A stretch of DNA of 64,000 nt from Escherichia coli O157:H7 (GCF_013167455.1 NZ_CP038328.1); one strand, 5' to 3'. Positions 33,855 to 34,256 are shown, counted from the stretch's first letter. Made by a program: numbers and translations. Notes: generated by a model from the letters alone, not told the origin.

Positions 33855-34140
33855 AAAAAAGAGCCAGCGACTGACCTGAAAGAAGACGCTGGCTAAAAGG
33901 CCTTATATGTTTGTAGAGACTTATTTTTCACAGACAGCAATGATGCCTGTCAATATATTATCAATATGCGGATTGTTTCAGTTACAGATGCTTTATTAAG
34001 GAAAAAAACAGCCAGCACTGACTTTCGGTGGAGAGGTGCTGGCTCAGAAGGATAGTTGGATTTCACATGATACTTATGCCTGGCGGTATATTTTCTGACA
34101 GACAGTGACGGGTGTTGTCAAGATATTGTGTCATTTATAA
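33855..34140. repeat. Two diverged tandem copies of a roughly 150-bp unit, each with a GCCAGC..GCTGGC hairpin and a ..CAGACAG..TGTCAA..ATATT.. segment
   Basis: Copy 1 about 33858-33975, copy 2 about 34008-34140, aligned by eye. Confidence 0.5.
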
Positions 34141-34219
34141 CCTGAATCAGGGGGTGGCCGGAATGTTATCTGGCATTTTTAGCAGAGCCTGAATGCCATA
34201 ATCACGGCTCCCGGCGTTG

Positions 34220-34256
34220 GCCGTCAGTGGGTGACACTGGCGGCTTTTTTGTTTTT
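34220..34256 (+). terminator. Strong intrinsic terminator 45 nt upstream of the holin gene (candidate tR')
   Basis: GGCCGTCAGTG-GGTGA-CACTGGCGGC hairpin followed by TTTTTTGTTTTT. Confidence 0.6.

Follow-up and report, generated by a model that had tools for sequence, protein, structure and literature searches.

The window, as we call the whole 64,000-nucleotide stretch of Escherichia coli O157:H7 DNA that was analyzed (NZ_CP038328.1), includes a lambdoid prophage in which the ORF calls leave a gap of 448 nt between an esterase gene and a holin gene. Positions are counted from the first nucleotide of the window, and the two flanking genes are the following.

32002–33852, plus strand: ORF of 616 amino acids for a SASA-family/NanS-p-type sialate O-acetylesterase, with its stop codon TAA at 33850–33852.
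34301–34507, plus strand: ORF of 68 amino acids for S, a class II (phage 21-type) pinholin, which matching records list as a pinholin or a "class II holin family protein".

The label "SASA family carbohydrate esterase" is attached to identical or near-identical DNA in RefSeq E. coli genomes and in phage 434. The intergenic region itself is 100% identical to that of many O157:H7 genomes and of the Sakai prophage Sp12, 98.5% identical to that of the Stx1 phage H-19B, and 95.8% identical to that of phage 434 (curated GenBank record OL657226). Three small ORFs within the gap, 33907–33999 (plus strand), 33950–34066 (minus strand), and 34147–34293 (minus strand), were rejected as genes, being unannotated in all matching records. 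The last of them also spans a T-run (34245–34252) whose length depends on the locus, and 33950–34066 also overlaps the PasA RNA described below.

The surroundings of the gap contain several further elements. Three consecutive tRNA genes (30669–30915, plus strand) are located between the Q region and a match to the Rfam family STnc100 (101.8 bits; 31692–31864, plus strand), which lies just 5′ of the esterase gene. Late regions of Stx-type lambdoid prophages typically contain such a row of tRNA genes; here, no stx gene is found between the tRNAs and the esterase. Zhu, Shabalina & Storz (2026; bioRxiv 10.64898/2026.05.13.724894) described the gene order pasD–esterase–pasA–holin and a relationship of STnc100 to PasD. 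In a global alignment, the STnc100 region is collinear with PasD2 of E2348/69 in part only, and the boundaries differ from those of the Rfam match. The same prophage carries a sok antitoxin RNA of the hok/sok type (116.9 bits; 27579–27753, plus strand) and a DicF RNA (76.7 bits; 20682–20733, minus strand). On the other side of the gap, an ORF of 115 amino acids (34509–34856, plus strand; "YdfR family protein" in matching records) is placed between the holin and the SAR endolysin (34907–35440). This ORF is missing from E2348/69 PP2 and from phage 434, in which the lysozyme gene lies directly 3′ of S; H-19B has a gap of ∼400 nt between holin and lysozyme, as in the window.

The first ∼300 nt of the gap are occupied by two consecutive units, whose motifs are given in the plus-strand reading.

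33853–34001: unit 1, with an A-run (33854–33860), the hairpin AGCCAGCG...CGCTGGCT (33862–33894), CAGACAG (33931–33937), TGTCAA (33948–33953), and TATATT (33954–33959).
34002–34150: unit 2, with an A-run (34002–34008), the hairpin AGCCAGCAC...GTGCTGGCT (34010–34044), CAGACAG (34099–34105), TGTCAA (34116–34121), and GATATT (34122–34127).

The initial annotation had described two diverged tandem units of ∼150 bp at this place and had named a formal alignment as the check that could refute them. All elements were recovered where they had been placed, and the units are significantly similar to each other. Their Smith–Waterman score is 24.5, as compared with a mean of 9.8 (S.D. 1.7, maximum 19.5) for 2000 dinucleotide-preserving shuffles, none of which reaches this score (z = 8.6). 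Likewise, none of 2976 random 149-nt pieces of the same window reaches 24.5 (maximum 15). The units are ∼60% identical with indels and keep an equal order of parts (A-run, hairpin, body, and TTGACA segment); the stretch from the hairpin to the TTGACA segment is ∼15 nt shorter in unit 1 than in unit 2. A blastn self-search pairs 33922–33959 with 34089–34127 in collinear fashion (72% identity over 39 nt), and the same search of the intergenic region against the 64-kb window returned no further copy of the repeat.

On the plus strand, seven adenines lie 5′ of each GCCAGC hairpin, and AAAAGG or CAGAAGG follows 3′ of the stem. Because the A-runs stand 5′ of the hairpins on this strand, the hairpins are Rho-independent terminators of the minus strand, which had been overlooked in the initial annotation. 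The minus-strand folds with their U7 tails reach −16.0 kcal/mol for unit 1 (8-bp stem, z = −5.5) and −16.3 kcal/mol for unit 2 (9-bp stem, z = −2.8). Indeed, terminators are annotated at equivalent places in the record of phage 434, two of them on the minus strand and one on the plus strand. A function of the GCCAGC hairpins as bidirectional terminators was considered and rejected, as the plus-strand flanks AAAAGG and CAGAAGG contain no T-run.

At three of the nine stem pairs, the hairpin types differ by compensatory double changes (C-G to U-A, A-U to G-C, and C-G to U-A), and 98% of the cells are paired, as compared with 18–50% when the partners are slid. As the set of variants is small and was assembled by hand, this covariation is supportive and not conclusive. 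Rfam searches of the window at the gathering score and of 33700–34400 at E ≤ 10 returned only chance snoRNA-like matches in the intergenic region, and no model matching PasA was found in them.

Unit 2 corresponds to a published small RNA, and the features on which this assignment is based are as follows.

34002–34086, minus strand: pasA homologue of 85 nt, EcOnc51 of Sakai Sp12, with its hairpin at 34044→34010 and its U-run at 34008→34002.
34047–34089, minus strand: hypervariable 5′ domain of PasA, a linked cluster of substitutions that divides two common alleles.

PasA (pathogenicity-associated sRNA A) was described in prophage PP2 of EPEC E2348/69 as a minus-strand RNA with a major form of 85 nt (743499 to 743415) and a minor form of 236 nt (743499 to 743264), located between E2348C_0688 (esterase) and E2348C_0689 (holin) (Pearl Mizrahi et al. 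2021; PMC8550237, Table S6). In an alignment with NC_011601 743264–743499, PasA corresponds to 34086→34002 of the window, and the 236-nt form ends at 33851. Of the 85-nt RNA (743415–743499), 83/85 nt are aligned, with full identity over the 3′ 45 nt and ∼70% identity over the 5′ 40 nt. The published seed GCCAGCACCU matches exactly at 34043→34034 on the minus strand, where it overlaps the 5′ arm of the terminator stem, and the probe used for PasA on Northern blots of E2348/69, GCCAGCACTGACTTTCGGTGGAGAG (PMC8550237, Table S6), is identical to 34011–34035 of the plus strand.

The two loci therefore have much in common: the position between esterase and class II holin, the strand opposite to the late genes, the 3′ 45 nt with seed, stem-loop, and U7, and a second downstream terminator that gives rise to the 236-nt form. 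They differ at 12 clustered positions in the 5′ 40 nt.

The EHEC homologues of PasA were named EcOnc51 and EcOnc52 (PMC8550237, Table S6). EcOnc51 is a Hfq-CRAC peak in Sp12 of O157:H7 Sakai at 2237479–2237555 (+) (Tree et al. 2014; PMC4104026, Table S2), and these coordinates convert to 34058→33982 of the window, covering the PasA terminator. The coordinates of EcOnc51 and EcOnc52 stem from an older version of the Sakai record and refer to repeated sequence, to which reads may multi-map, an O157 genome having about five copies. With the window corresponding to Sp12, EcOnc51 comes to lie on the 3′ part of unit 2 and EcOnc52, which was assigned to Sp4, on unit 1. Both were known as crosslinking peaks with a predicted Rho-independent terminator only, and neither a Northern blot nor a function was reported for them (PMC4104026).

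Because the window matches the published sequences of PasA, EcOnc51, and EcOnc52, the two units represent two Hfq-associated RNA modules of one strand, both of them known from earlier publications. We conclude, with a probability of roughly 0.85, that the gap is a minus-strand sRNA locus composed of pasA (unit 2) and a diverged tandem paralogue (unit 1), and that the hairpin before S is a plus-strand terminator. Expression, size, Hfq dependence, and trans partners are known from the experiments of others on identical or near-identical sequence (PMC8550237, PMC4104026). In EPEC, the PasA signal on Northern blots depends on Hfq, and RIL-seq yielded 41 partners (PMC8550237); a biological phenotype of PasA was not found in the published literature that we searched. 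As the repeat beside the lysis genes of Stx-type prophages is a documented sRNA locus, no new class of element is needed to explain it.

The initial annotation had also offered a regulatory or sRNA element gating the expression of the lysis genes. The sRNA part of this proposal agrees with PasA and EcOnc51/52; these RNAs, however, are encoded on the minus strand, act in trans according to the published data, and are not known to gate lysis. Gating could still be achieved in cis, if PasA and the unit 1 RNA paired with the late transcript or the 3′ UTR of the esterase, or if convergent transcription interfered with the lysis genes or the esterase; indeed, both RNAs are fully complementary to a plus-strand transcript running from the esterase to the terminator or to S. 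However, Q-modified RNA polymerase of lambdoid phages reads through terminators and is expected to resist such obstacles. RIL-seq in EPEC captured a plus-strand RNA over the 5′ end of PasA (pasA.E2348C_0689.IGR, 743494–743512(+)) and PasA–esterase chimeras among the PasA partners, as a cis effect would predict, but the published partners are overwhelmingly trans targets, core and virulence mRNAs that share a seed-complementary motif (PMC8550237). Taken together, we regard a gate acting in cis as unlikely.

Near the 3′ end of the esterase coding sequence, CTGGTGCTGG (33820–33829, plus strand) shows 8 bp of complementarity to the PasA seed and fits the motif given for PasA targets in EPEC; there, both esterase genes are RIL-seq partners of PasA (PMC8550237). 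This suggests that the neighboring esterase may be regulated by PasA, either in trans or in cis.

For unit 1, the following RNA is proposed.

33853–33919, minus strand: unit 1 RNA, a PasA/PasC-like paralogue equivalent to EcOnc52, with its hairpin at 33894→33862 and its U-run at 33860→33854; its 5′ end would lie near 33919.

The terminator of this RNA abuts the stop codon of the esterase. Its stem and seed GCCAGCGUC are of the PasC type and not of the PasA type. Unit 1 also forms the 3′ part of the 236-nt read-through form of PasA, whose end in E2348/69 (743264) corresponds to 33851. EcOnc52 is a Hfq-CRAC peak in Sakai Sp4 at 1181998–1182075 (−) (PMC4104026, Table S2), which converts to window-equivalent 33919→33842 and covers unit 1. 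Sp4 has kept unit 1 alone, as an IS629 inserted between the two units follows window-equivalent 33975. In EPEC, the unit 1 region was recorded as the RIL-seq entity pasA.E2348C_0688.IGR, with a fragment at 743267–743294(−) and five partners (PMC8550237), and in the chimeras it is always RNA2, as is the case for sRNAs.

Plasmid matches to unit 1 alone were examined as a possible separate context and rejected, because they are IS-flanked prophage fragments. IS elements (IS629/IS1203, IS600, IS3-family, and ISEc20) are found repeatedly inside or adjoining the units, namely in Sakai Sp4, in 94-kb plasmids, and in several IMG/VR loci, and the intergenic region looks like a hot spot of IS insertion.

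The segments paired by blastn resemble promoters in both readings.

33922–33959, both readings: promoter-like segment of unit 1, homologous to 34089–34127, with TTGACA at 33953→33948 (minus strand) and CAGACA-N17-TATATT (plus strand).
34089–34127, both readings: promoter-like segment upstream of PasA, with TTGACA at 34121→34116 (minus strand) and CAGACA-N17-GATATT (plus strand).

The segment upstream of PasA is invariant in PasA, PasC, and single-unit loci. Its minus-strand −35 element TTGACA ends 30 nt before the mapped 5′ end of PasA at 34086, and the TTGACA of unit 1, with the spacing of unit 2, predicts a start at ∼33918–33919, the 5′ edge of EcOnc52. Both units have a weak −10 region (TCAGAA/TGAAAA). 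With a threshold of 9/12, a consensus scan for sigma-70 promoters did not call the TTGACA site of either unit and found no minus-strand match of ≥9/12 upstream of the PasA 5′ end; in unit 1, it called 33931–33959 on the plus strand and CTGAAA-N18-TATATT (33981→33952) on the minus strand, both at 9/12. From the distances to the PasA 5′ end and to the edge of the CRAC peak, we infer one candidate minus-strand promoter per unit, each with a perfect TTGACA. For the 5′ end of PasA, Zhu et al. suggest processing as the origin (bioRxiv 10.64898/2026.05.13.724894).

Whether unit 1 is a gene of its own has to be weighed against a simpler role. Unit 1 could be a decayed duplicate of pasA that is retained as a fail-safe terminator against pasA read-through running antisense into the esterase, with the Hfq signal stemming from the 236-nt RNA. 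The 3′ end of the minor PasA form coincides exactly with the unit 1 terminator, unit 1 has a shorter, diverged body, a strong −10 element is not found downstream of its TTGACA, and the assignment of EcOnc52 to Sp4 could be an artefact of multi-mapping. However, a decayed duplicate accords poorly with the near-invariance of unit 1 over the 43 distinct tandem loci listed and with the retention of a PasC-type seed. Moreover, the distance between TTGACA and the edge of the Hfq peak at 33919 equals that of pasA, and unit 1 appears in RIL-seq purely as RNA2 with partners of its own. We consider the fail-safe role a serious possibility, although not the favored one.

We further compared the locus with at least 111 loci from IMG/VR, which were fetched with a 19-mer from the conserved promoter segment; this sample is biased.

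Tandem loci with unit 1 and a PasA-type unit: about 68 among the 111 loci listed.
Loci with a single unit and the PasC hairpin, directly after the esterase stop: 26 among the 111 loci listed.
Loci with a single unit and a GCCAGTAC...GTACTGGC hairpin: 6 among the 111 loci listed.
IS-cut or truncated loci: the remainder of the 111 loci listed.

In the PasC locus, a unit-1-type stem is joined to a unit-2-type body within one unit. The A-run, the stem, and the post-stem UAAAA of PasC match unit 1, and its 5′ body matches unit 2. PasC of E2348/69 PP5 thus resembles unit 1 in its stem and seed UUUUAGCCAGCGUC...CGCUGGCU and in its position directly after the esterase stop. In contrast to the window, PasC loci possess a single unit, and the body of unit 1 (33895–33919) is unrelated to that of PasC. 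The loops of PasC and unit 1 are also different, with the exception of one tandem locus in which unit 1 has exactly the hairpin of PasC. Judged by its sequence, PasC looks like a recombinant of unit 1 and unit 2, and the mosaic fits a recombination between the repeated hairpins that would have converted two units into one or one unit into two.

A common origin of PasA and PasC has been proposed (bioRxiv 10.64898/2026.05.13.724894). The same preprint states that the pasA copies did not arise from tandem duplication, the closest pair being 22 kb apart. This statement holds for copies of pasA that are detectable by BLAST; the diverged unit 1 beside every pasA is, as far as the alignments indicate, a tandem paralogue, which a search of this type would miss.

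Variation between the tandem loci is concentrated in one part of pasA. The window and E2348/69 PP2 differ at 20 positions over 466 nt, 12 of which fall inside the 43 nt of 34047–34089, the single-stranded 5′ portion of PasA (binomial P = 2e-8). Among the 43 unique tandem loci listed, these 12 changes are linked and form two haplotypes in about even numbers (23 versus 21). The split agrees with the distinction between PasA and PasA-2 made in the preprint (bioRxiv 10.64898/2026.05.13.724894), and the window probably carries the other common allele, likely PasA-2.

The remainder of the gap, between pasA and S, contains two features of the plus strand.

34134–34218, plus strand: highly conserved stretch with a strong fold, which separates the pasA promoter region from the terminator.
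34219–34256, plus strand: strong intrinsic terminator with an 11-bp stem (34219–34245, seven G-C pairs), a 5-nt loop, and a T6GT5 tail.

The strong hairpin with a U-run 45 nt before S, as noted in the initial annotation, is thereby confirmed: the terminator folds at −23.3 kcal/mol and ends at 34256, 45 nt 5′ of the S start codon at 34301. It is annotated at the equivalent position in the phage 434 record OL657226, and in the literature on H-19B and NanS-p we found nothing specific about a terminator upstream of S. PasA, PasC, and single-unit loci show hardly any variation in the region 34087–34297. This region is, including the terminator, not common to 933W-type Stx2 phages, the homology of which starts only at the S start codon. 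Because the block is absent from 933W-type phages, it is part of the esterase/sRNA module and not of the lysis cassette. The terminator probably insulates the lysis genes from transcription that is not antiterminated.

Recurrent polymorphisms in the plus-strand block occur only at 34154–34155 (G/A/gap and T/gap) and at 34215 (C/A/T). They fall in predicted plus-strand stems, and the variants are few. A match in E. coli OkiPb01715 to 34170–34310 comprises the last ∼130 nt of the block with the terminator and the S start and is located directly after a truncated DUF1737 gene. Prophages of this type possess neither the esterase nor pasA, which suggests a deletion derivative that has retained the terminator.

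The stability of the block raises the question of a transcript of its own. The segment 34134–34258 of the plus strand folds at −48.5 kcal/mol (z −3.4), which none of 200 shuffles matches, and 34134–34256 could represent an unannotated structured RNA of ∼120 nt that is divergent from pasA and ends at the strong terminator. CAGACA-N17-GATATT would place its start near 34134, and the block is nearly invariant in PasA, PasC, and single-unit loci, whereas the adjoining 5′ domain of PasA varies. However, the promoter match of only 8/12 falls below the threshold of the scan, the Hfq-CRAC peaks listed for Sp12 include none on this strand (PMC4104026, Table S2), and the block has no Rfam match. All homologues of the block in phages, plasmids, E. 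coli genomes, and IMG/VR are ≥95% identical, so that the conservation may reflect recent spread. Such an RNA therefore appears improbable to us.

The plus-strand features also bear on the other origin proposed in the initial annotation, in which the units are the remains of a second late-promoter/terminator module (PR′–tR′-like) left by module exchange. A promoter-like CAGACA-N17-(T/G)ATATT on the plus strand of each unit, a plus-strand terminator 3′ of the units, and a block (34087–34297) that is specific to the module and not found in 933W-type phages could all be read in this way. However, blastn detects no similarity of the units to the PR′-proximal STnc100 region (31692–31864) or elsewhere in the window, and 33700–34400 yields no STnc100-type Rfam match at E ≤ 10. 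The repeated hairpins carry their U-runs on the minus strand and thus terminate the opposite strand, and the published RNAs of this sequence are minus-strand RNAs (PMC8550237). We consequently abandon a late-module origin as very improbable and retain the minus-strand sRNA locus.

In the working model of this locus, unit 2 gives rise to the 85-nt Hfq-dependent sRNA, the 3′ stem-loop and U7 of which serve both as Rho-independent terminator and as Hfq site. Transcripts of pasA that read through the first terminator are stopped by that of unit 1, yielding the 236-nt minor form. Unit 1, which is found on Hfq in EHEC and EPEC data, would in addition be transcribed independently. On the plus strand, the terminator at 34219–34256 would close the esterase/sRNA moron module. 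In the lysogen, it would halt unmodified polymerase, arriving by leakage at tR′ or from initiation inside the module, before S-R-Rz; after induction, it would be no obstacle to Q-modified polymerase.

Tandem sRNA paralogues with a read-through product are known from PrrF1–PrrF2/PrrH in Pseudomonas and from OmrA/OmrB in E. coli. By analogy, the window resembles these systems in its head-to-tail, diverged units on the same strand, which would have their own terminators and a longer read-through RNA. The likeness covers the layout of the units and not the transcription of the second unit, and there is no relation in sequence. AgvB and AsxR of EHEC lambdoid prophages likewise bind Hfq, lie in the "moron" region between PR′ and the lysis genes, and are antisense to the late transcript, but they differ from the units of the window in sequence, size, and position. 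The corresponding Rfam families RF02702 and RF02703 have no match in the window at the gathering score or in the intergenic region at E ≤ 10.

The sRNA locus as such has been described before; what is new here is the tandem paralogy, the mosaic structure of PasC, and the confinement of variation to the 5′ domain of PasA. A more far-reaching version of the model, which we put forward only tentatively and as a whole consider rather doubtful, is a two-gene sRNA cassette. In it, the family would have a third member, unit 1, transcribed on its own and bearing a seed of the PasC type. The single-unit pasC would have arisen by recombination at the hairpins or the tandem by the reverse process, and the plus-strand block would be either an additional, unannotated structured RNA or a barrier linking the expression of pasA with the protection of the lysis cassette. 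If true, the two-gene cassette would call for a qualification of the claim, made recently, that tandem copies of pasA never occur (bioRxiv 10.64898/2026.05.13.724894). The variable part of PasA is limited to a 5′ domain of 43 nt between invariant flanks, and the locus may serve as a model for how the sRNA repertoire of prophages diversifies, by duplication followed by recombination at terminator hairpins.
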